Positions 1 to 9,603 of a stretch of 14,641 bases of DNA are shown here, piece after piece. The stretch comes from a virus. The stretch lies in the UHGV virus genome UHGV-0127656. One strand, 5' to 3'. The translations under genes and the position numbers were made by a program. Under the pieces are notes generated by a model. It was not told the origin of the DNA. It saw only the letters and a list, made by a program, of their open reading frames with translations, and did not search any database. The first letter of the stretch is position 1, and each line of letters opens with the position of its first letter.

Positions 1-1
1 C

Positions 2-364
2 CTACCATTGTTTAATTCCGTGGGTGACTCAGTTGAAGAAGCGTTGCTTGAGGCTGGTTATGGATTGGTCGCAGCGGTTGCGATTGAGATTGAAGAACGC
101 CGACCTGTTCCCACTGGTAGCGAGCCAAAAGAAGGTGAGTACGTTGTCTCTTTGCCAGTGCTACCAGCAATGAAGGCTGCACTCCACAACGCGATGATAG
201 AAACCGGCACACGCAAAGCAGAGTTGGCGCGCAAACTCGGAAAAAATGGAACACAGATTGATCGGCTTCTCGACGTCGAACATTCATCGAAAGTTGAAAC
301 TGTCGAGCTGGCACTGCATCAACTGAATAAAAATATCGCCGTATCTGTCACACCAATGCGGTGA
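2..364 (+). CDS. hicB: HicB-family antitoxin of a type II toxin-antitoxin pair, 5'-partial (frame open to the left window edge; ORF track starts it at the first Met, 8)
   Basis: C-terminal segment 'TRKAELARKLGKNGTQIDRLLDVEHSSKVETVELALHQL' resembles the DNA-binding tail of E. coli HicB as I recall it, and the preceding 'GDSVEEALLEAGYGL...' resembles the HicB N-domain. No stop between position 2 and the Met at 8, so the N-terminus and any hicA lie upstream of the window. Confidence 0.6.
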   Translation, partial: LPLFNSVGDSVEEALLEAGYGLVAAVAIEIEERRPVPTGSEPKEGEYVVSLPVLPAMKAALHNAMIETGTRKAELARKLGKNGTQIDRLLDVEHSSKVETVELALHQLNKNIAVSVTPMR

Positions 365-442
365 CTGCTCCCCGCCCTGGCTGGGCGAGGATTTACGGGG
401 TATTTGTTAAAAACGCTCTATTCAAAGAAGAAATACCGAATC

Positions 443-461
443 CCCCGGAGGTTATCCGGGG
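443..461 (-). terminator. Stem-loop (7 bp stem ccccgga/tccgggg, 5 nt loop) between convergent hicB and the 461 aa gene; possible terminator for the minus-strand gene
   Basis: Inverted repeat read directly from sequence. On the minus strand it is followed by the moderately T-rich GATTCGGTATTTCTTCTT; no T-tract on the plus side. Confidence 0.3.
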
Positions 462-476
462 TGTCCGGTCGCCAGG

Positions 477-1862
477 TCAGGTTTCCAGCCCAAAATCGCT
501 TTGTTCTGTTTTGGCTTCGAACATCGTGAAGTTAAGCCCTTTCCCCTCTCCATGTTCCAGTTCAATCTCATTAGAAACAGCGGTCAAAATACTACGTAGA
601 TCGACATCTCCACCGCCGAACATATCGCCCAACGCCTGCTGTTTATGAATCAGTTCGTCGTTGATTTTTTGTGCCATTTTTTTGAATGCAGCCCCCATGC
701 GCTTCGCGCTTCGATTATTTGCCACGATGAATAGCGCCAACGCCTCGGCTTCCGGCGGGCTATCACCGAAGAGTCCGCGCTGGGCTATCACCTCTTCCAC
801 TGCCTGACCGTTGTCTTTGGCTTCACGAACAAGGTTAATCGCGTCCTGGAGTGCTGCTATAGCCTGTTTATCCAGACCGTTCACCTGCTCTATACCATCA
901 ACCAGACCAGTTACAGCATCATGATGTGCATCGCCAGAAATCGACTGCATTTGCGCAAAGTCACTGGCTGCTGTATTAAGCGCGGTCAGGATATTGCGCA
1001 TTTCCGGATCCGGTTCTTCCGCCACAAGCCGAACAAGTCGCTCATCCTTATAGGCTTTGGCAAAAATCGCATTCTGAATGCGATCGATAAGCTGTTTCGT
1101 TGGACGTCCATCGGCTGTAAGCAAACCTGCCGTCGCGGTATCGCCTATTTCGTGCAAAAACGCACGAATAAACGCATCATTGGACCGCGCCAGTAGATTT
1201 CCATCATCTGAAGGATTAAATAGCGCCATGACGCTCTCAGTGAGAAATTGCGCATCCGCATACGCTTTCTCACTTGCAGCCATCTCTTGCAGATCGCTGA
1301 TGTTTGAGTCGCGTGCAAATTGAGCACGATCAACGTCAGTGAGGCGCTCGCGAACCAGTACAGGCATCACCATTGCCCTGACGTCTTCGGGATTAAGGCC
1401 AAACTCTTTAGCGTGATCGATAAGATATTGTCGGTAATCTTCAGCCTGTCCTTGTTCATAAGCACGCCAGATTCCCATGCTTCGACCATTACCAGACTCA
1501 ACGACATTATCCGGACCAACAATCGGGGAACCATGACTACTCATACCCGAATCAGTGAGCTGTGCCGGGCGTAAATTGGCGGCGATACGGTTAACCTGGA
1601 GCTTACTTGACAGTCGGGTGCGATCGCGAGGCTGGAGTTCCTCCGGAAATGACGGATTTATACTTCCGTCCAGGTTGTTAGAAATGATGAGCTTTTTGGC
1701 ATCAATAACCTTGAACGCTGTTTTAACTTCGTCGCCTTTGCTGGTGACGACATAGCTGCTACGCCCCAACTTCGTCTCTTGCTTTTCAAGAGATGACACC
1801 ACAGCGATAACCCCCTCAATGTTCGCTGCGGCCAGAAGTGCTGATGTTACGTTTTGAGTCAC
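477..1862 (-). CDS. Hypothetical 461 aa protein, separately transcribed; occupies the position expected for ddrB if the upstream operon is Dar-like, but identity is unknown
   Basis: Long ORF with GTG start at 1862 preceded by AGGTGG at about 7 nt spacing. Flanked by hairpins on both sides (1932-1948 upstream, 443-461 downstream). No Walker or other catalytic motif recognised by eye. Confidence 0.55.
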   Translation of the reverse strand: MTQNVTSALLAAANIEGVIAVVSSLEKQETKLGRSSYVVTSKGDEVKTAFKVIDAKKLIISNNLDGSINPSFPEELQPRDRTRLSSKLQVNRIAANLRPAQLTDSGMSSHGSPIVGPDNVVESGNGRSMGIWRAYEQGQAEDYRQYLIDHAKEFGLNPEDVRAMVMPVLVRERLTDVDRAQFARDSNISDLQEMAASEKAYADAQFLTESVMALFNPSDDGNLLARSNDAFIRAFLHEIGDTATAGLLTADGRPTKQLIDRIQNAIFAKAYKDERLVRLVAEEPDPEMRNILTALNTAASDFAQMQSISGDAHHDAVTGLVDGIEQVNGLDKQAIAALQDAINLVREAKDNGQAVEEVIAQRGLFGDSPPEAEALALFIVANNRSAKRMGAAFKKMAQKINDELIHKQQALGDMFGGGDVDLRSILTAVSNEIELEHGEGKGLNFTMFEAKTEQSDFGLET

Positions 1863-1922
1863 AATTAACCACCTTTCTGTAAAAAAGGCAGTGTAAAAAG
1901 TGTGTTATTTCGGTGACTATTT

Positions 1923-1948
1923 TAAGAAGAAAGGGGCATTCTGCCCCT
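1923..1948 (-). terminator. Rho-independent terminator ending the five-gene minus-strand operon (possibly bidirectional)
   Basis: Stem aggggca/tgcccct (1932-1938 / 1942-1948) with 3 nt loop. On the minus strand it is followed by TTCTTCTTAAAA (1923-1931), and on the plus strand by CTCTTTTAC. Sits 6 nt beyond the stop of the 123 aa gene. Confidence 0.5.
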
Positions 1949-1953
1949 CTCTT

Positions 1954-2325
1954 TTACGCTGCATACCCGTTAGCTGAAACCCAGTTTACGGTCTGTTCTT
2001 TGGCCTGGTCGAGTGTCAAAAATTCACCAATATATTGAGATATGCCTCTCAAAGCATCGATGAACTCCATTTGTGATGATTTAGTAAATGCACCACTAAG
2101 GAAGTCAGCAACAATTTTAGGCGTTTCTTGTGCCGCCGGTTGCACTTCCTCTTCTTGCTGTTGTGCTGGATTATTCGATGAACCAAGCCCCAGCTTCATC
2201 ATCACTTCAACTATCCGCACGCCAATAGTGACACGTTGTACCGCAGTCGCGCTTTTTTGCGCTGACATCAGCTCAGACAGTTCTTTGCCTAAGCTAAGGC
2301 GCTCCGTTACTGATATTTTCACCAC
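1954..2325 (-). CDS. Small 123 aa protein, last gene of the operon; DdrA-like by position and size
   Basis: GTG start (2325 or 2322) overlapping the stop of the upstream 650 aa gene, AAGGGGG Shine-Dalgarno-like element upstream, terminator immediately downstream. Assignment is by synteny only. Confidence 0.45.
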   Translation of the reverse strand: MVKISVTERLSLGKELSELMSAQKSATAVQRVTIGVRIVEVMMKLGLGSSNNPAQQQEEEVQPAAQETPKIVADFLSGAFTKSSQMEFIDALRGISQYIGEFLTLDQAKEQTVNWVSANGYAA

Positions 2326-4271
2326 ACGCCCCCTTGTTGTATCTCTGCCAGAATGTTGATCAGGTGATCGGCTGCCGCACCAACAAGTGACTCGTTCTCA
2401 TCATATCGACCTGCGTTGATAAGAACATTAGCTGCCTCCTGAATGCGATCAAACTCCGCTCTAATCACCGTCAAATCACGGGACGTAAACTGCAACGGCA
2501 CGGATTTCAGATATTCCAGCGCACTGTCCGCCTCCTGATCAGCCTCACTAACTACTGGCCCATCTGAACCTGTATCAGACTCTTGGGGGGATTCAGGTTC
2601 AGACTCAGGTTCTGGTTCTTGTACTGCTTCCGGTGCCTGATCTAATGTCTGTTCAGCTTCGACTACTTCTGATTGATTCTGAAGCGCGTCATAGATATCC
2701 ATTATAAAAAGGTTCTCCCCATCTCCAAGTGGATAAGCGACGTTAGGAAATGCTTTGCGGAAGAGGATTTTTATCTGCGCCTTAAAGGTTTTCAAGTCGC
2801 TTCTAAACAGATCAACATAGCCATCAATATGGTTCGACATACTGGACGCAACCAATTCGCCTGCAATCTCTTTCAATTCATCGTCACCAGGGAGATATAG
2901 CAACTCGTACTGACTGACTTCTTCGTCTGTCAGTTTGCGGTCATACGTAATGATTCCGTGACGAGCATATTCGTAATACGGATCAGCCTGATCAGGACGG
3001 TCAAGTACAGCTTTATTTCCTTCAGGAACCGCACCAACACCCGCCGGGCGAGATTGGAGCGCATAGCGATATTTACCAACCTCCAGGGGATCAGGATGTG
3101 ATGCTGGTTGTGGCTCCTGTTCAGGCTGCGGCTGATCAGTTGGCTCAGGCTGGCCCGGCAACACATCCACTTTGTATTGATCAGCATTATGTTCACGATA
3201 GGCTTTAAGTAATTTGGTTGCAGCGTCCGCTGAACTCCCACCTTTAACAGCACTGACATCAATACTGAAATTGCCTTCTGGTGCCTCAATCGTGACAAAG
3301 CTATCACTGCCTGACGTGACATACTTAACTACAGCACCATTATCCAGCGTTGTTTGGCCTTCTGTAGCAAGATTATGTTTTATGTGTCGCAGTTGATCAT
3401 TGAAGGCACGCTCTTTAGTTCCTTGGCTCTTAGCTGACAATAAATTATCGCGTTTAGCCTGCAATTCCGCGTTAAGGGCTTTTTGTGCGTCTAATTTATT
3501 CTGCATATCATTGAGTGTTGAGCGTTTCTCTGCCAGCCCCCGCTGTGCGTCTTCAACCTGCTCAATCAGCACAGAACGTTCTTCTGCCAGCTTGTCGGCT
3601 TCATTGAGATACCCCTCAATATCAGCCTTCATTTTGTCCTGGCGCTCCTTTGCTTTTTTGAATTTTGCACTGTTACGCTCAATGAGGTTAGAAAGCGCCT
3701 GACACACCTGGCTCAGAGATACATCACGCCCACCGATTGGCGCAACAACATGCGTAACGTTTCTTTTGTTAAGAAGAAACTGAAACGCAACCAGCTCGTC
3801 ATCCCCTTTAATTCTTGTGCCGTCTGCGGTTGGAGAATGGAAAATTATGCTTGTCGTTTGTCCATCGGTTAGAGGTATTTGTGCTGTTACAACAGGGATA
3901 TTAGCAACCCGGCGCACGCGCCCAATGATTGCCCCACCGATACTATTACGTCCGTCTTCATATTCACCTGCCTCATCCGTACCCGCAGCAATGTCAGTGC
4001 CATTCAGGCCGCGATTAAGCGCCCGGACAAATGCTCGCATTGTTTGCGCTAACCGCAATTTTGTTGTGGTTATGGCTTCGAACATTGCCTCATTGGTAGT
4101 TACCAAAATTTCGTTGCCCATATAGGCCAGCTCGATATCTTCCAGCGTCGCAGGCTCGATAAGTAAATCATCCTCGGTGATATCTTCCGCCACCCAACGA
4201 TTAGGCGTATATCCAGTGAGCGTATCTGCAAAAGTGGACTGGATATTTATTCGAATAGGTTTCTTTATCAT
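2319..4271 (-). CDS. darA: 650 aa multi-domain protein: N-domain, coiled coil, beta-rich middle, Pro/Gln-rich and Pro/Glu-rich acidic linkers, C-terminal helical domain; DarA-like (P1 antirestriction / head-associated protein) by architecture
   Basis: ATGA start/stop overlap with the upstream 205 aa gene. Size close to what I recall for P1 DarA. A segment of it appears similar to the upstream 205 aa protein, matching the P1 description of Hdf as 'homolog of DarA fragment'. Not verified by search. Confidence 0.5.
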   Translation of the reverse strand: MIKKPIRINIQSTFADTLTGYTPNRWVAEDITEDDLLIEPATLEDIELAYMGNEILVTTNEAMFEAITTTKLRLAQTMRAFVRALNRGLNGTDIAAGTDEAGEYEDGRNSIGGAIIGRVRRVANIPVVTAQIPLTDGQTTSIIFHSPTADGTRIKGDDELVAFQFLLNKRNVTHVVAPIGGRDVSLSQVCQALSNLIERNSAKFKKAKERQDKMKADIEGYLNEADKLAEERSVLIEQVEDAQRGLAEKRSTLNDMQNKLDAQKALNAELQAKRDNLLSAKSQGTKERAFNDQLRHIKHNLATEGQTTLDNGAVVKYVTSGSDSFVTIEAPEGNFSIDVSAVKGGSSADAATKLLKAYREHNADQYKVDVLPGQPEPTDQPQPEQEPQPASHPDPLEVGKYRYALQSRPAGVGAVPEGNKAVLDRPDQADPYYEYARHGIITYDRKLTDEEVSQYELLYLPGDDELKEIAGELVASSMSNHIDGYVDLFRSDLKTFKAQIKILFRKAFPNVAYPLGDGENLFIMDIYDALQNQSEVVEAEQTLDQAPEAVQEPEPESEPESPQESDTGSDGPVVSEADQEADSALEYLKSVPLQFTSRDLTVIRAEFDRIQEAANVLINAGRYDENESLVGAAADHLINILAEIQQGGVW

Positions 4272-4885
4272 GCATCTTCCTCCAGGCGCGCTATTTCTTC
4301 TTTCAATACGCGAGTTTTCGCCAGTTCCTGCGCCATCTCGGTTCTAATGATTTCAGTTTCTCTTGTTGCGCGGTCTGAATTACCTTGCACCTGATTTAAT
4401 TTTTCTTTGGCCCTTTCAATATCCTCGCGGATCGCATCGCGAGATTCCTTTGCCTCTGCTAGTTTCTGCGCATTGGACTTAACGCCTTTTATTTTCTTAT
4501 TCCCATCATCAATATCTTTCGCCGCACGAGCTAACTTACGCGCCAATGATTTCTGAAATGATGATGCGCCTTTATTAAATAAAGCAGCCAGTGATTGCCC
4601 TAAAGCCATCAGCGTTTTAACTGGCTTGAAAGGAACAATTTTTCCGTTCAGTTTTACACCAGAAATATCACCAGTATCATTAACCTGAACGTCCATCGTC
4701 TGCTCATCGATTCCGATAAGGGTAAACGTGCGCGTCATGATCCCGTCTTTCTTCCTGCCATTACTGGCGGGGATCACCCTCGCTATCTTGTAGCCTCCTT
4801 TACCGATTTCTTTGACGAGTTTTGCCAGCCCCTTTTCGTTTAACTCATCATAATTAAGAAGAACATAATTAGACTTATTTGACAT
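4268..4885 (-). CDS. hdf: About 205 aa protein with N-terminal beta-rich domain and C-terminal coiled coil; Hdf-like. Start is probably the Met at 4885 rather than the ORF-track start at 4909
   Basis: AAGGAG sits 6 nt upstream of the ATG at 4885 (the ORF-track Met at 4909 has no comparable site). Region 'IARVIPASNGRKKDG...ALGQSLAALFNKGASSFQK' resembles DarA-like 'RVANIPVVTAQIPLTDG...SLSQVCQALSNLIERNSAKFKK'. Confidence 0.5.
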   Translation of the reverse strand: MSNKSNYVLLNYDELNEKGLAKLVKEIGKGGYKIARVIPASNGRKKDGIMTRTFTLIGIDEQTMDVQVNDTGDISGVKLNGKIVPFKPVKTLMALGQSLAALFNKGASSFQKSLARKLARAAKDIDDGNKKIKGVKSNAQKLAEAKESRDAIREDIERAKEKLNQVQGNSDRATRETEIIRTEMAQELAKTRVLKEEIARLEEDA

Positions 4886-5321
4886 TCCAGTCTCCTTCAC
4901 ACTTTTCAATCATAAACTGACGTTCTATGCAGTCATTGATAGGGAAAATGCGATAAAGCGGATTCAGGCGGCAATTACCGTTAGTCAATGTGACCTTTAG
5001 ATCCCACTTCGCTGGCTCAAGATATTTCGTGTCGATGAGCAAATATTCTTCTCTCTCACCGCGTTTTGACGCGTCAACTGGTCTGGTTTTCCCCGAAATA
5101 ACCACAGATGGATTTTTCAAGTCCTGCAACCAATATTCGATTTGTGCATTGCTTACCCAGCTTCGTTTAACGCGAAGCGACACAGGAAACGCTATAGCAG
5201 ACTCTTTCACTACAGCTTCGCCAATGCTCAAAATATCAACACTCTTGCGACGAAATAAGAAACGGTCAATAACGGCAACAAATGCCATGATAAAAATGAA
5301 ATAATTTCCAAAGTCACCCAT
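4875..5321 (-). CDS. 148 aa protein with one N-terminal transmembrane segment (YFIFIMAFVAVIDRFLF); LydB-like by position and size (holin antagonist in P1)
   Basis: Start ATG overlaps the stop of the upstream holin-like gene by 1 nt, with AGGTGGAG upstream. Overlaps the next gene at its 3' end. No lysozyme catalytic motif seen. Confidence 0.45.
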   Translation of the reverse strand: MGDFGNYFIFIMAFVAVIDRFLFRRKSVDILSIGEAVVKESAIAFPVSLRVKRSWVSNAQIEYWLQDLKNPSVVISGKTRPVDASKRGEREEYLLIDTKYLEPAKWDLKVTLTNGNCRLNPLYRIFPINDCIERQFMIEKCEGDWNVK

Positions 5322-5647
5322 TACTTCTCTCCACCTTTTCCCCCACTCGCTATTACGCTTAAGAGATTCAAGACGTTACTAGCTCTGGACTTCAAGCCCT
5401 GTAAAATTTCACTTCCGTTGTTACTGGCAATCAGAACAACGCAGTAAATGATGCCTTCCGGCCATTCATAGCTATCAGCCACCCAAAACCCCGCAAGCCC
5501 GGCAGTTACCGCAGTAAACAATTCACTCGCGAGGTTGAGCAGTGACGCAGAAATGCGCCCGTCTCTAACTCCGAGAAGGAATACGCCGGTTCCACTCAGC
5601 AGGGATGTTATGACTGCTACAGCCAGATTTTCATAATCTGCAAACAT
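5321..5647 (-). CDS. 108 aa small membrane protein with three predicted transmembrane helices and a charged C-terminal tail; class I holin-like (LydA-like by position)
   Basis: Hydrophobic stretches 'LAVAVITSLLSGTGVFLLGV', 'LLNLASELFTAVTAGLAGFWVA', 'GIIYCVVLIASNN' and C-terminal 'SGGKGGEK'. GGAGGGG upstream of the ATG; first gene of the operon. Confidence 0.5.
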   Translation of the reverse strand: MFADYENLAVAVITSLLSGTGVFLLGVRDGRISASLLNLASELFTAVTAGLAGFWVADSYEWPEGIIYCVVLIASNNGSEILQGLKSRASNVLNLLSVIASGGKGGEK

Positions 5648-5729
5648 ACCCCTCCAGAAATGACGTTTAACGCGGCTTCAACTTATCCAGTTTGTTATTT
5701 CCCGACTAAATGCCATTCACACAAAATGG

Positions 5730-5948
5730 ATGCATATGATGGCCCGGTGGTCCGTAAACCTCGTCACTCAGAGCGTGGAGGATGCCAAATTCGCGTATCA
5801 ACAAAATGGTCCAAACACGGCTTTAAAGAGAAATACGCTTGAATGCGCAAGATGTGAGCTGATTCTTGAGGACAAAATGATGACATGTGAGTCTTCACAA
5901 GCGTCATTCAGTGAATATAATGCCCCCCTCTCAGATACCACTAACTGA
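5730..5948 (+). CDS. Possible small plus-strand ORF (72 aa) divergent from the operon and ending 13 nt before a strong terminator; product unknown
   Basis: ORF stop at 5946-5948 followed by the hairpin/T-tract at 5962-5993. No convincing ribosome binding site or recognisable domain; an overlapping 60 aa frame (5660-5842) is an alternative. Confidence 0.2.
   Translation: MHMMARWSVNLVTQSVEDAKFAYQQNGPNTALKRNTLECARCELILEDKMMTCESSQASFSEYNAPLSDTTN
5894..5921 (+). promoter_or_regulatory. Candidate sigma70-type promoter: -35 TTCACA (5894-5899), 16 nt spacer, -10 TATAAT (5916-5921)
   Basis: Hexamers read directly from sequence. Perfect -10, 5/6 match to TTGACA at -35; lies about 40 nt upstream of the terminator at 5962-5993. 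Confidence 0.3.
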
Positions 5949-5961
5949 GTGTTCATTTTGC

Positions 5962-5993
5962 CCGCCGTCATTGACTGGACGGCGGCTTTTTTG
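5962..5993 (+). terminator. Rho-independent terminator on the plus strand
   Basis: 8 bp GC-rich stem ccgccgtc/gacggcgg (5962-5969 / 5978-5985), 8 nt loop, followed by cTTTTTTg (5986-5993). Confidence 0.6.
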
Positions 5994-6042
5994 TACCAAA
6001 GGATTGTATTACTAAAAAAGGTCACAAAAGCACTCACTAATA

Positions 6043-6065
6043 AAGCCCTCAACAAAAGAGGGCTT
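6043..6065 (-). terminator. Stem-loop downstream of the tail fiber assembly gene; weak terminator candidate for the tail operon
   Basis: 8 bp stem aagccctc/gagggctt with 7 nt loop. Only a short TATT follows on the minus strand, so termination efficiency is doubtful. Confidence 0.3.
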
Positions 6066-6107
6066 GAAATATCAAAAAAGCAGTGCTGATTGGATTGTTA
6101 TGATTGT

Positions 6108-6530
6108 TTATGCAGGCATCTCAGGCCATGAGATATCTGCATCAACAGAAGTGTCAACTCTATTAAGAAGAACTCTATACCTCTTTAACTTTGTCAACAT
6201 TTCTATTTCCTCATCAGTGGCAATATCCATATCAACAGCATCCTGAAGCGTTGATATTTTTATGCTCACATCATTCATAAGACTACTTTTGGTGTTTTCA
6301 GCAATGCTGACTCTATCCTCTAAGCTCATAGGTTGTGGGTCAGATAACATTGGATAACCATCGCCATTTGCAATTATTATTTTCCCATTGCCATACCCTG
6401 ATAACAATTCATCATATAAGTCATCAGGTATATGTACAGCATCGGACGGCCATGAACCGTTTTTATCGTAATCTTCTTTTAGTCTATCGTCGTAGAAACC
6501 ACCAGTATCTTTGCTGTAATACTTTGCCAT
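6108..6530 (-). CDS. Tail fiber assembly protein (Tfa/gpG/U family chaperone)
   Basis: 140 aa protein immediately downstream of the tail fiber gene. C-terminal 'KLKRYRVLLNRVDTS...WPEMP' matches the conserved Tfa motif as I recall it. ATG with GAAGG upstream. Confidence 0.85.
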   Translation of the reverse strand: MAKYYSKDTGGFYDDRLKEDYDKNGSWPSDAVHIPDDLYDELLSGYGNGKIIIANGDGYPMLSDPQPMSLEDRVSIAENTKSSLMNDVSIKISTLQDAVDMDIATDEEIEMLTKLKRYRVLLNRVDTSVDADISWPEMPA

Positions 6531-6561
6531 TTAAAAGCCTTCATTCTAATTAACTATATTT

Positions 6562-9069
6562 TTAATACCCATAAGCAACATACTGTGCATATACTTTATC
6601 AGTAGAGCTACTTTTTACTGTAAAACCAGTGGCTGAGTTGTTGTATGTATAAAGAATTGCATTAACAGCATTCCCGCTATTAGGTGAAATCACAACTACC
6701 GCACACGCCTCAGGAAAAGCAGTCGGAAATTTAACTACGCTTCCTGGAGTAACAGCCGCTATAATCCCCCACTGCATCATCACCTTAGTTGATGTATCCT
6801 TATGCCATCCATGAATGTTGGCATATGCTGTGTTTTTAGCCTGATATTTCGTGTTGAAATTACTATAGTTACCAGGGGTAATCTGACCAGCGGCAGATAA
6901 ATTCCCCATAACCCTTACATGACCATCAGCACGTCCTAATTCTACGCGACCATCACCGCCATCTATCTTTAATGGAGTGTAAACGACATCACCATTAACA
7001 TTTTGCCCAGTGGTTGATATCTGGAAACTATATCCAGTATTAGTTATTAGGAATCCATAGTTATTATTATAAGTTAGGCGTATAGCATTTTGGCTGCTGG
7101 ATATAATTTCACCGGTAACAGTACCACCTGTTGTTGGTAACGCACCAACATGACTTGCCGTTAATGTGATATCTGCAGAACCATCAAACTTAACACCGTT
7201 GATTGTGCGGGCTGTTTGCAGTTTTGTAGCGGTTGCAGCATTACCTGTTGTGTTCTGGTTACCGGCAATGTTCACACCCGGCAGGTCGATATTGGCGGTG
7301 CCATCAAATGCCACCCCGCCGATCGTTCGGGCCATCTTGAGCTTTGTGGCAGTATCTGCGTTTCCCGTCAAATTACCTGTAATGCCACCACTAACTGTTA
7401 CCCCATTACCGATGGACACCAACCCGGTTCTTAAATTTATAGCAAAAGGTCTTAATGGGCCGATGTCACCATTTTCTCCCTCACCTTCATTTGTCGGGAT
7501 AAGATGAAGATATTCCTCGGATCTCCTGAAGATAAGGCCAAAGTCCTGGTTAAATATTCGAAGGGCATTTATTGTGCCAATTTTTAGCTGCCCCCCCATT
7601 GTGTCGCCAGAACGCTGAACTGCGTTACCAGCTTGAGAAGCAATATCCGTTAAGCCAAGATCTTCAGGGGTCAGAGTAATATCTGCCGACCCATCAAATG
7701 CCACACCGTTAATCTTTCTGGCTGTTTTTAATTTCGTCGCAGTATCGGCGTTCCCGGTCAGCGTACCAGTGATCCCCGCGCTGAAAGTCTGGCGTGCACT
7801 CCAGGTATTAGCTGTGCTCAACAGGGGGAGCTTTTCTCCGCTGGTTCCGAGTTCTCTTAAACCAAGGTATTGGATAACAGCCAGTGTGCTTGTTTTAGCA
7901 AGAATATCGCGACCGACTGACGTTAAATCAGTCTGGGCTACAGTGTCTGTTCCGGTAAAGTACGGTAATTTATTTGCCCCCGTCGCCAGGTCAGCGAGCG
8001 CGGTTAAGGTTGCGTCGAGAGGCTGCTTACCTGCCAGGGCATTTGTCATTGTAGCCGCAAAGTTCGGGTCATTGCCCAGCGCCGCAGCAAGCTCATTAAG
8101 AGTATCAAGAGCTTCTGGTGATGAGCCGACCAATGCAGAAATAGCGGCACGAACATAAGCGGTTGTTGCAATCTGAGTGTTGTTCGTACCTTGTGACGCT
8201 GTAGGCGCTGTTGGCACCCCTGTAAATGCCGGGCTTAATAACGGTGCTTTAAGAGCTAAAGCAGCATTAATCGTCTGGCTAAACTGAGGATCATTGTTAA
8301 TTGCATCTGCAATTTTTTTCAGCGTATCCAACGCTGAAGGAGAACCATCAATAAGGGCGGTTATTGCGGCCTGAACAAAGGCAGTGTTTGCGATTTGTGT
8401 ACTGTTTGTACCTTGTTCCGGAGTTGGAGATTTAGGTATACCAATAAACTCCGGGCTATCAACCGGAGCTTTTAGTTTGTTTAACGTGCTGATAGCAAGA
8501 GGTGTTGCGGCTTTATATTCTTCGTCACTATCCAAAGCACTGGAAAACTCAACACCAACAGCACGATTAGCACGATATTCAGTGCTAATCATATCTGCGG
8601 TAACGGCTTGAGCATTGTCAGGCACGATCACGCGGCATAGCTCAATCTGGTTAGATGCTATTTCCTCATCAACGAGAGCAATAATTCTCGCTGCGCTAAT
8701 ATCCGATGAGCTATCTACCTGGCTGGTTTTCACTCCATGTTCGTAATTAGCTTCAAGAACGATGATTGTCGTTACACCAGCTTCTACAGGAACAAGAACA
8801 TCACTGACTTGCTGCACGGATATCTGACATTTACCCACGTCAATTGAAGCCGCCCCTCTTCCCTCTGTTTTCTCGGATGTAATACGCACAAACAGACCAT
8901 CCCCTGGCACCGGTTCAAACCCACAGTACACTCCGGGCAGAACGATATTTTTCATCTTCCTGTTTAGAGCTTCGGTGCTATACAGCTCAAAGTATTGCAT
9001 GTCTGCAATTAGTGGAGCGGAAATGTCCGAAGATAAGGTGACAATATTCTTTACTTTATCTGCGCACAT
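6562..9069 (-). CDS. Tail fiber protein (835 aa) with a central region resembling the P2 gpH / P1 S / Mu S / lambda Stf family and a distinct C-terminal receptor-binding domain
   Basis: Segments such as 'SPAFTGVPTAPTASQGTNNTQIATTAYV...SSPEALDTLNELAAALGNDPNFAATMTNALAGKQPLDATLTAL...LPYFTGTD...LTSVGRDILAK' closely resemble P2 gpH as I recall it. Also carries repeated 'TGNADTATKLKTAR.INGV.FDGSADITL' units. ATG with GAGGGA upstream. Confidence 0.9.
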   Translation of the reverse strand: MCADKVKNIVTLSSDISAPLIADMQYFELYSTEALNRKMKNIVLPGVYCGFEPVPGDGLFVRITSEKTEGRGAASIDVGKCQISVQQVSDVLVPVEAGVTTIIVLEANYEHGVKTSQVDSSSDISAARIIALVDEEIASNQIELCRVIVPDNAQAVTADMISTEYRANRAVGVEFSSALDSDEEYKAATPLAISTLNKLKAPVDSPEFIGIPKSPTPEQGTNSTQIANTAFVQAAITALIDGSPSALDTLKKIADAINNDPQFSQTINAALALKAPLLSPAFTGVPTAPTASQGTNNTQIATTAYVRAAISALVGSSPEALDTLNELAAALGNDPNFAATMTNALAGKQPLDATLTALADLATGANKLPYFTGTDTVAQTDLTSVGRDILAKTSTLAVIQYLGLRELGTSGEKLPLLSTANTWSARQTFSAGITGTLTGNADTATKLKTARKINGVAFDGSADITLTPEDLGLTDIASQAGNAVQRSGDTMGGQLKIGTINALRIFNQDFGLIFRRSEEYLHLIPTNEGEGENGDIGPLRPFAINLRTGLVSIGNGVTVSGGITGNLTGNADTATKLKMARTIGGVAFDGTANIDLPGVNIAGNQNTTGNAATATKLQTARTINGVKFDGSADITLTASHVGALPTTGGTVTGEIISSSQNAIRLTYNNNYGFLITNTGYSFQISTTGQNVNGDVVYTPLKIDGGDGRVELGRADGHVRVMGNLSAAGQITPGNYSNFNTKYQAKNTAYANIHGWHKDTSTKVMMQWGIIAAVTPGSVVKFPTAFPEACAVVVISPNSGNAVNAILYTYNNSATGFTVKSSSTDKVYAQYVAYGY
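7159..7779 (-). repeat. Three copies of a ~110 bp coding repeat inside the tail fiber gene (7159-7269, 7279-7389, 7669-7779)
   Basis: Encode 'TGN(A/-)DTATKL(K/Q)(T/M)AR.I.GV.FDG.A.I.L' at about aa 431-467, 561-597 and 601-637. Confidence 0.7.
8059..8481 (-). repeat. Two tandem degenerate ~200 bp coding repeats inside the tail fiber gene (8059-8259 and 8281-8481)
   Basis: Encode paired units 'LKAP..SP.F.G.P.(A/S)PT...GTN.TQIA.TA(F/Y)V.AAI.AL...SP.ALDTL...A.A..NDP.F' at about aa 197-263 and 271-337. The DNA-level similarity is visible by eye. Confidence 0.7.
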
Positions 9070-9518: not shown

Positions 9519-9603
9519 ACGAACATAGCCCCTTTAACAAGCAATAAATCGAAGGGCAGTATGTTCAGTTTGTGATTTCCAGTGGTCTTTTGTTTTGAGA
9601 AAT

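Follow-up and report, generated by a model that had tools for sequence, protein, structure and literature searches.

A probable D6-lineage form of the phage P1 darA late operon in virus genome UHGV-0127656

Introduction

What is encoded by the five tightly packed minus-strand genes that lie beside the tail-fibre genes of virus genome UHGV-0127656, and do they form an antirestriction operon of the kind known from phage P1? We analysed a 14,641-nucleotide (nt) stretch of this genome (the window), for which an initial annotation had proposed that the five genes correspond to lydA-lydB-hdf-darA-ddrA of the P1 darA operon. The locus is very probably the phage D6-lineage form of the P1 darA late operon and sits on a ~90-kb P1/D6-like Escherichia coli (E. 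coli) phage-plasmid. The operon type is already known; the two P1 features missing here, a full-length DdrB and a P1-type promoter box, are missing from D6 as well. We describe reading frames, overlaps, homology, domains, synteny, selection, a recurring promoter-like motif and a hairpin, and assign function by homology with P1.

Results

The five packed genes match the P1 darA operon one to one

All five genes are present in the ORF map of the window (its listing of open reading frames, ORFs) where the initial annotation had placed them, and a sixth gene follows on the same strand (lengths in amino acids, aa):

5321–5647, minus strand: lydA, holin, 108 aa
4875–5321, minus strand: lydB, LydA antagonist, 148 aa, with a single N-terminal hydrophobic anchor
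4268–4885, minus strand: hdf, 205 aa from the ATG at 4885; the frame is open up to a TTG at 4909 (4268–4909, 213 aa)
2319–4271, minus strand: darA, 650 aa
1954–2325, minus strand: ddrA, 122–123 aa, from a GTG at 2322 or 2325
477–1862, minus strand: ddrB, short form, 461 aa, with a ParB-like domain and a helical region

We compared the five proteins directly with the annotated P1 proteins (NC_005856) by BLASTP and used NC_050154 as the D6 reference. The P1 comparison fits every assignment in the proposed order and sizes (34–41% identity, E values of 4e-25 to 1e-144), and Pfam, PHROGs, NCBIfam and the Protein Data Bank (PDB) concur. PHROGs assigns names to all five.

LydA is 41% identical to P1 LydA (E 4e-25) and 94% identical to its D6 counterpart, and matches the holin family PHROG 1527 (1.3e-38). 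Its Kyte-Doolittle profile has two clear hydrophobic segments (residues 9–27 and 39–57) and a short third one (IIYCVVLIA, ~66–74). The description of this protein as holin-like is thus borne out by homology, and the three-transmembrane topology proposed with it is no more than plausible, the third segment being short. LydB (34% identity to P1 LydB, E 2e-30; 94% to D6) has one N-terminal hydrophobic segment, in agreement with its prediction as a membrane-anchored protein, and belongs to the LydB family (Pfam PF16084, 86.9 bits against a cutoff of 28; PHROG 1898, 4e-68).

Hdf is 40% identical to P1 Hdf (E 5e-31) and 80% identical to the D6 protein. It consists of a DarA_N-like N-terminal domain (Pfam DarA_N, 65 bits) and a charged C-terminal helix, and it matches PHROG 1620, 'Hdf-like antirestriction' (3e-72), and the Hdf chain of the P1 head cryo-EM structure (PDB chain 9ukm_H, 3.4e-25). 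DarA is 40% identical to P1 DarA over 632 aa (E 1e-144) and 78% identical to D6 DarA. From the N-terminus it comprises a presumed propeptide, DarA_N (residues 62–201), a coiled-coil, a P/E-rich linker (374–395), DarA_C (399–461) and a C-terminal helical region. DarA_N and DarA_C score 136 and 69 bits in Pfam (cutoff 27 each), the protein falls in PHROG 1926, and it matches the DarA chain of the P1 head structure (PDB chain 9ukm_I, 3e-124). DarA is also the sole NCBIfam match, to the equivalog NF052326 anti_RE_DarA ('antirestriction phage head protein DarA') at 1083.7 bits against a cutoff of 350; NCBIfam gave no model for LydA, LydB, Hdf, DdrA or DdrB. DdrA is 36% identical to P1 DdrA (E 3e-26) and 65% identical to its D6 counterpart, and matches PHROG 1855, 'DdrA-like anti-restriction protein' (1.4e-44).

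The P1 operon (lydA-lydB-hdf-darA-ddrA-ddrB, transcribed from LPdar) is made up of the same six genes, in unchanged order and all on one strand, likewise between the tail-fibre region and head genes, with tight overlaps and the same domain architectures (LydB; DarA_N in Hdf; DarA_N and DarA_C in DarA; ddrB-ParB). The closest relatives are orf25–orf30 of D6 and the equivalent genes of D6-like prophages found as plasmids in E. coli and Salmonella, with 65–94% identity and identical order. The depositors of D6 annotated these six genes as 'similar to P1 gene' lydA/lydB/hfd/darA/ddrA/ddrB.

The operon resides on D6-like phage-plasmids

At the DNA level D6 can be aligned to 47% of the window, with 79% identity, whereas alignment with P1 is limited to the conserved part of gene S. 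The window and D6 are collinear from ddrB through sit, and the flanks follow the P1/D6 order, with ddrB on one side of the operon and U, S, R, 16, bplA, pmgA and sit on the other. Protein identity to D6 is 76–94% for ddrB, R, 16, bplA and pmgA.

Positions 1–6600 of the window are 99.4–99.6% identical to three ~90-kb E. coli plasmids, one of which (NZ_LR890273, hereafter the sister plasmid) is 99.6% identical over this range. It encodes DarB (2278 aa) and Ulx (144 aa), both 98% identical to their D6 counterparts, and an Lpa homolog (82% to D6) is encoded in both the sister plasmid and D6. In P1, too, darB, ulx and lpa lie elsewhere in the genome. Of 5426 complete E. coli genomes, 100 carry a related operon, in each case on a plasmid, and identity reaches 99% or more in 14 of these; the 104 E. 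coli matches all lie on plasmids of ~90 kb. The literature describes plasmid prophages of the D6 type and their 'antirestriction module' (PMC6799933), and the newest PGAP labels read 'antirestriction phage head protein DarA' and 'defense against restriction DarA-related protein'.

Gene junctions, starts and terminators

The genes overlap at every junction, as the tight packing noted earlier had implied, by 1, 11, 4 and 4 (or 7) nt from lydA to ddrA. The lydA/lydB junction reads TAATG (1-nt overlap), lydB and hdf share 11 nt, and the hdf/darA and darA/ddrA junctions read ATGA and GTGA (or 7 nt), respectively. Each of the five operon starts has a Shine-Dalgarno sequence, and the PGAP starts in the near-identical plasmid agree with those taken here. 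The hdf start at ATG 4885, which gives the ~205-aa product expected for the third gene, is backed by the D6 alignment, by an AAGGAG site 6 nt before it and by the PGAP call in the sister plasmid; for ddrA, PGAP picks the second GTG there (2322, 122 aa).

Two terminator-like hairpins follow genes of the Dar region:

1927–1953, minus strand: hairpin 3' of ddrA, with a 12-bp stem, a GAA loop and then a T-rich run
436–456, minus strand: hairpin 3' of ddrB, CCCCGG...CCGGGG and then a T-rich run; read from the sequence and partly found in the terminator scan, weak evidence

The first of these, the terminator predicted for the operon end, has a ΔG of -19.1 kcal/mol (z -4.6) and was also found by the terminator scan. 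Behind it stands ddrB, on the same strand, so the operon described initially as five genes keeps its five coupled genes and is effectively a five-plus-one arrangement. Its placement directly downstream of the tail-fibre assembly gene needs a similar adjustment: it does lie downstream, at a distance of 460 bp, in a spacer (5648–6107) that holds terminators and a relic of the invertase gene cin.

A scan of the whole window at Rfam gathering thresholds found no RNA family. A sigma-70 promoter scan gave 13 matches against 9.7 in shuffled sequence, none of them convincing for the operon. Other-frame ORFs of at least 100 aa within the operon (plus strand: 2042–2359, 3400–3702, 3817–4125 and 4990–5304; minus strand: 2930–3322) have no PHROG match and were set aside as chance ORFs.

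A recurring motif is a candidate late promoter

A 22-nt pattern, GAAATnACAnACT-N4-AnnnT (GAAATnACAnACT-N3-TAnnnT), occurs three times in the window against 0.01 expected, always on the minus strand: at 5680–5701 (lydA), 1890–1911 (ddrB) and 9558–9579 (R). Two of these copies belong to the Dar region:

5680–5701, minus strand: candidate late (Lpa-type) promoter of the lydA operon, GAAATAACAAACT-GGA-TAAGTT
1890–1911, minus strand: second late-promoter-like motif, before ddrB, GAAATAACACACT-TTT-TACACT

In the lydA copy the -10-like hexamer is at 5685–5680, and transcription would start near 5673. The ddrB copy lies 28 nt upstream of ddrB and has the same position in the sister plasmid. D6 conserves the motif upstream of lydA and R and has a degenerate copy, with 2 mismatches, at the position of the ddrB motif. 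The sister plasmid contains 8 matches against ~0.15 expected, each preceding a late operon by 35–140 nt in the orientation of that operon; the targets are R/S, lydA, ddrB, portal, a lysozyme-like gene, mat, gene 7 and pmgB/sit.

P1 also has a late-type promoter upstream of lydA. The annotated P1 late promoters follow AAGT[T/G]A[C/T]TT, 4 nt and a -10 hexamer, with P1 LPdar reading AAGTTACTT-N4-TACCAT, so that the box is GAAATnACAnACT here and AAGTTACTT in P1. From the positions and recurrence of the motif we infer that it is the late promoter of the D6 lineage and that the operon, like its P1 counterpart, is a late one. An alignment of the lydA upstream region with P1 LPdar through a shared AAGTT (AAGTTGAAG versus AAGTTACTT) was considered and dropped, because the GAAATnACAnACT motif explains the three sites in the window and the eight in the sister plasmid; the AAGTT is part of the -10-like hexamer of the recurring motif.

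ddrB is short and lies in a variable slot

The 461-aa DdrB matches Pfam ddrB-ParB (137.7 bits) and is 90% identical to D6 orf25 (454 aa). It corresponds to the N-terminal ~445 aa of the 995-aa P1 DdrB, with 64% identity to P1 residues 2–442, and does not have the C-terminal 'possible metallopeptidase' half of the P1 protein. The D6 annotation lists no separate homolog of that C-terminal half, although no dedicated search for one was made.

The gap between ddrA and ddrB also differs from P1, where it is 12 nt: here it is 91 nt and holds the strong hairpin and the second late-promoter-like motif. D6 has an equivalent hairpin in a gap of ~90 nt. An E. marmotae plasmid, 97.7% identical to the window from lydA to ddrA, loses homology at the hairpin (window position 1927); opposite-strand helix-turn-helix (HTH) and DUF3944 genes stand there in place of ddrB, which is absent. 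Because homology stops at the hairpin and ddrB is exchanged beyond it, the hairpin is a real module boundary. Judging from these comparisons, ddrB is a variable accessory of the Dar system in the D6 lineage.

The cargo between the ddrA hairpin and the portal gene varies. Positions 1–1926 of the window hold the short ddrB and hicB; D6 has the short ddrB, with a DUF4145 protein and orf23 as downstream cargo instead of hicAB; the E. marmotae plasmid has no ddrB and carries the HTH and DUF3944 genes, hicAB and TnpB. The hicB gene (2–364, plus strand) is convergent with ddrB, encodes a HicB-like antitoxin (Pfam HicB-like_2, 33 bits) and is cut by the window edge; in the sister plasmid annotation a HicA toxin gene adjoins it.

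The N-terminal half of DdrB, with its ParB-like ESGNGR motif intact, is nearer to P1 (64%) than are the other Dar-operon proteins (34–41%), which suggests either stronger constraint or a more recent exchange.

With core proteins at 34–41% identity to P1 and a DdrB that retains the ParB-like half only, is independently promoted and is exchangeable, the Dar module of the D6 lineage might be a functionally shifted variant, the position after ddrA serving as a cargo slot for alternative genes, head-packaged or other, of anti-defence or defence. We hold this to be doubtful; were it true, the D6 lineage could counter restriction or BREX-type systems other than those in the P1 set.

Proposed function by homology with P1

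For Dar genetics we drew on secondary accounts (PMC12810830, PMC9024508, PMC12707154). The P1 virion proteome includes Hdf, DarA, DdrA, DdrB, DarB and Ulx, and LydA and LydB are not mentioned there; Hdf and DarA are the head-size determinants of P1, and DdrA is listed as an EcoA antagonist (PMC9024508). In cryo-EM of P1 the inside of the capsid bears 55 DarA-Hdf pairs at the penton-hexon junctions, where the two proteins pair via helical bundles, contact DNA and are lost upon DNA ejection; residues 1–69 of DarA are absent from the density, which fits proteolytic processing, and deletion of hdf or darA yields particles without all other Dar proteins (PMC12810830). Dar protection acts solely in cis, on DNA packaged together with the proteins, and is directed against several type I systems and BREX (PMC12707154). 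The roles of LydA and LydB as holin and antagonist come from the annotation of the P1 record and from Pfam descriptions. The suggestion that the operon products are packaged in the virion and protect against type I restriction therefore holds, as far as P1 is the guide, for Hdf, DarA and DdrA; LydA and LydB, holin and antiholin, fall outside it.

By analogy, expression timing, virion packaging and the activity and specificity of antirestriction can be inferred for the operon described here. Late in lytic growth an Lpa-type activator would turn on the promoter at ~5680–5701, giving one translationally coupled lydA-lydB-hdf-darA-ddrA mRNA that would mostly end at the hairpin at 1927–1953; ddrB would be expressed from its own late promoter (1890–1911), by read-through, or both. 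The LydA holin and its membrane-anchored antagonist LydB would jointly set the time of lysis. At the penton-hexon junctions, on the inside of the capsid, Hdf and DarA would pair by their helical domains, touch the packaged DNA, help to fix head size and be required to load DdrA, DdrB, DarB and Ulx into the head, with DarB and Ulx supplied from elsewhere in the genome. The DarA N-terminal propeptide would be removed by a prohead protease. At infection the Dar proteins would exit the head with the DNA and shield it in cis from type I restriction. If specificity is as in P1, the EcoA family would be the target of DarA and DdrA, and DarB and its helpers would counter EcoB and EcoK.

T4 IPI* and other injected head proteins are alike in being packaged in the head, injected with the DNA and active against host restriction at entry. 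IPI* differs in that it has no relation to the Dar proteins in sequence or fold, acts as one small protein directly inhibiting the type IV enzyme GmrSD, and has neither a role in capsid morphogenesis nor a multi-protein loading hierarchy.

Several observations weigh against assigning a P1-type Dar operon and its function to this locus. LydA scores 20.5 bits against Pfam Phage_holin_3_3 (PF16083), under the gathering cutoff of 28.4. The C-terminal ~540 aa of P1 DdrB are not in the window DdrB, so a full-length DdrB is missing, as it is in D6. The P1 late-promoter box is not present here, and the motif that would substitute for it was recognised by position and recurrence only. DarB, Ulx and Lpa were found in the near-identical sister plasmid only and not within the window. 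The functions of the Dar proteins in the D6 lineage are predicted by homology with P1, and with just 34–41% identity between the five proteins and those of P1, target specificity may differ.

The last of these points bears on a different account of the operon, in which hdf-darA-ddrA are kept mainly for head assembly or capsid stabilisation (head size, neutralisation of DNA charge) and antirestriction has been lost or retargeted. P1 Hdf and DarA do determine head size and act as structural partners to the capsid (PMC9024508, PMC12810830), and the large divergence from P1 (34–41% identity), the half-length DdrB and the complete absence of ddrB from the close E. marmotae relative all speak for such a shift. 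However, DarB and Ulx, whose sole known role is antirestriction, are kept in the sister plasmid, each 98% identical to the D6 protein, and DdrA, the EcoA antagonist of P1, is intact (its substitution ratio is not computable, synonymous sites being saturated). We regard this account as unlikely; it is moreover compatible with a D6-lineage Dar operon and does not exclude one.

The module is under purifying selection

The ratio of nonsynonymous to synonymous substitution rates (dN/dS) relative to D6 is 0.22 for lydA, 0.08 for lydB, 0.09 for hdf, 0.08 for darA and 0.06 for ddrB. For ddrA synonymous sites are saturated (proportions of nonsynonymous and synonymous differences, pN 0.22 and pS 0.78) and dN/dS is not computable. 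Differences from the 97.7%-identical E. marmotae relative are almost all synonymous. The low dN/dS and the predominance of synonymous differences indicate purifying selection, and therefore a maintained module and not a relic.

Synonymous divergence (dS) from D6 is uneven along the region: 0.15 in lydA and 0.36 in lydB (4875–5647), and above 1.3 in hdf, darA and ddrB (within 477–4885). This mosaicism suggests a recent recombination tract with an end near the lydB/hdf junction.

A broken cin gene and an orphan cix site flank the operon

The initial annotation had described the element as lacking the cin inversion system. Functionally this is right, but the system is not simply absent. A cin relic on the plus strand (5736–5880, in the ORF 5730–5948) retains the start codon at 5736 and ~105 nt of 5' coding sequence, broken by 38-bp and 1-bp insertions, and homology to the D6 and E. 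marmotae cin genes ends near 5880. The 72-aa relic ORF matches a DNA-invertase PHROG (2e-09) over 26 residues. One exact D6 cixR site, TCTCTTAAACCAAGGTATTG, persists at 7853–7872 (plus strand), inside S, and no cixL occurs anywhere in the window. The inversion system was evidently lost by deletion or replacement and not originally absent. In D6 cin is intact and the invertible S'/U' segment is complete, compared with the cin relic and single cix site here; unlike P1, the present locus has a dead cin and no lydC upstream.

The orphan cixR marks the former boundary between the constant and variable parts of the tail fibre. The variable end and chaperone (6108–7860, minus strand) are of a type unlike those of D6 and P1. 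U, the chaperone, has 140 aa and shares 31% identity with its D6 counterpart; its alignment to P1 U is confined to the last 63 aa. S carries a Gp53-like C-terminus and is annotated as 3510 bp in the sister plasmid, compared with 2508 bp here.

Just past the cin breakpoint (5894–5993, plus strand) lies a near-consensus sigma-70 promoter (TTCACA-16-TATAAT, 11/12), followed after ~40 nt by a strong plus-strand terminator (5962–5985; 7/8 pairs G-C, then CTTTTTT). The pair could yield a ~60-nt transcript, antisense to nothing annotated and with no match in Rfam.

Decay of this kind might extend to the operon, which would then be a non-functional remnant within a defective plasmid prophage that has ceased to produce particles. 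The neighbouring cin is dead, the invertible tail-fibre segment is gone, and defective D6-like plasmids without the whole region are known (PMC6799933). Loss of cin, however, only fixes host range without disabling the phage. None of the six ORFs is broken, with dN/dS of 0.06–0.22 relative to D6 and almost no nonsynonymous changes relative to the 97.7%-identical relative; overlaps and ribosome-binding sites are preserved, and the surrounding structural genes are intact. A leftover is thus very unlikely. The fallback of the initial annotation, an uncharacterised membrane-plus-coiled-coil accessory module unrelated to P1 Dar, has superficial features alone in its favour (small hydrophobic proteins, a coiled-coil) against highly significant one-to-one P1 homology and matches to curated family models, and can be dismissed with near certainty.

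Discussion

The D6-lineage Dar operon proposed here is of immediate use for annotation: most public records give 'hypothetical protein' for four of the five genes and 'head protein' for darA. The lineage-specific motif, the half-length DdrB with its own candidate promoter and the variable slot behind ddrA provide leads for the study of late regulation and Dar assembly in P1-like phages. With the assignment made above, D6-like phage-plasmids, present in ~2% of complete E. coli genomes, would carry a complete and selectively maintained Dar antirestriction system, a point relevant to the spread of D6-like elements among strains that differ in their type I restriction-modification systems.

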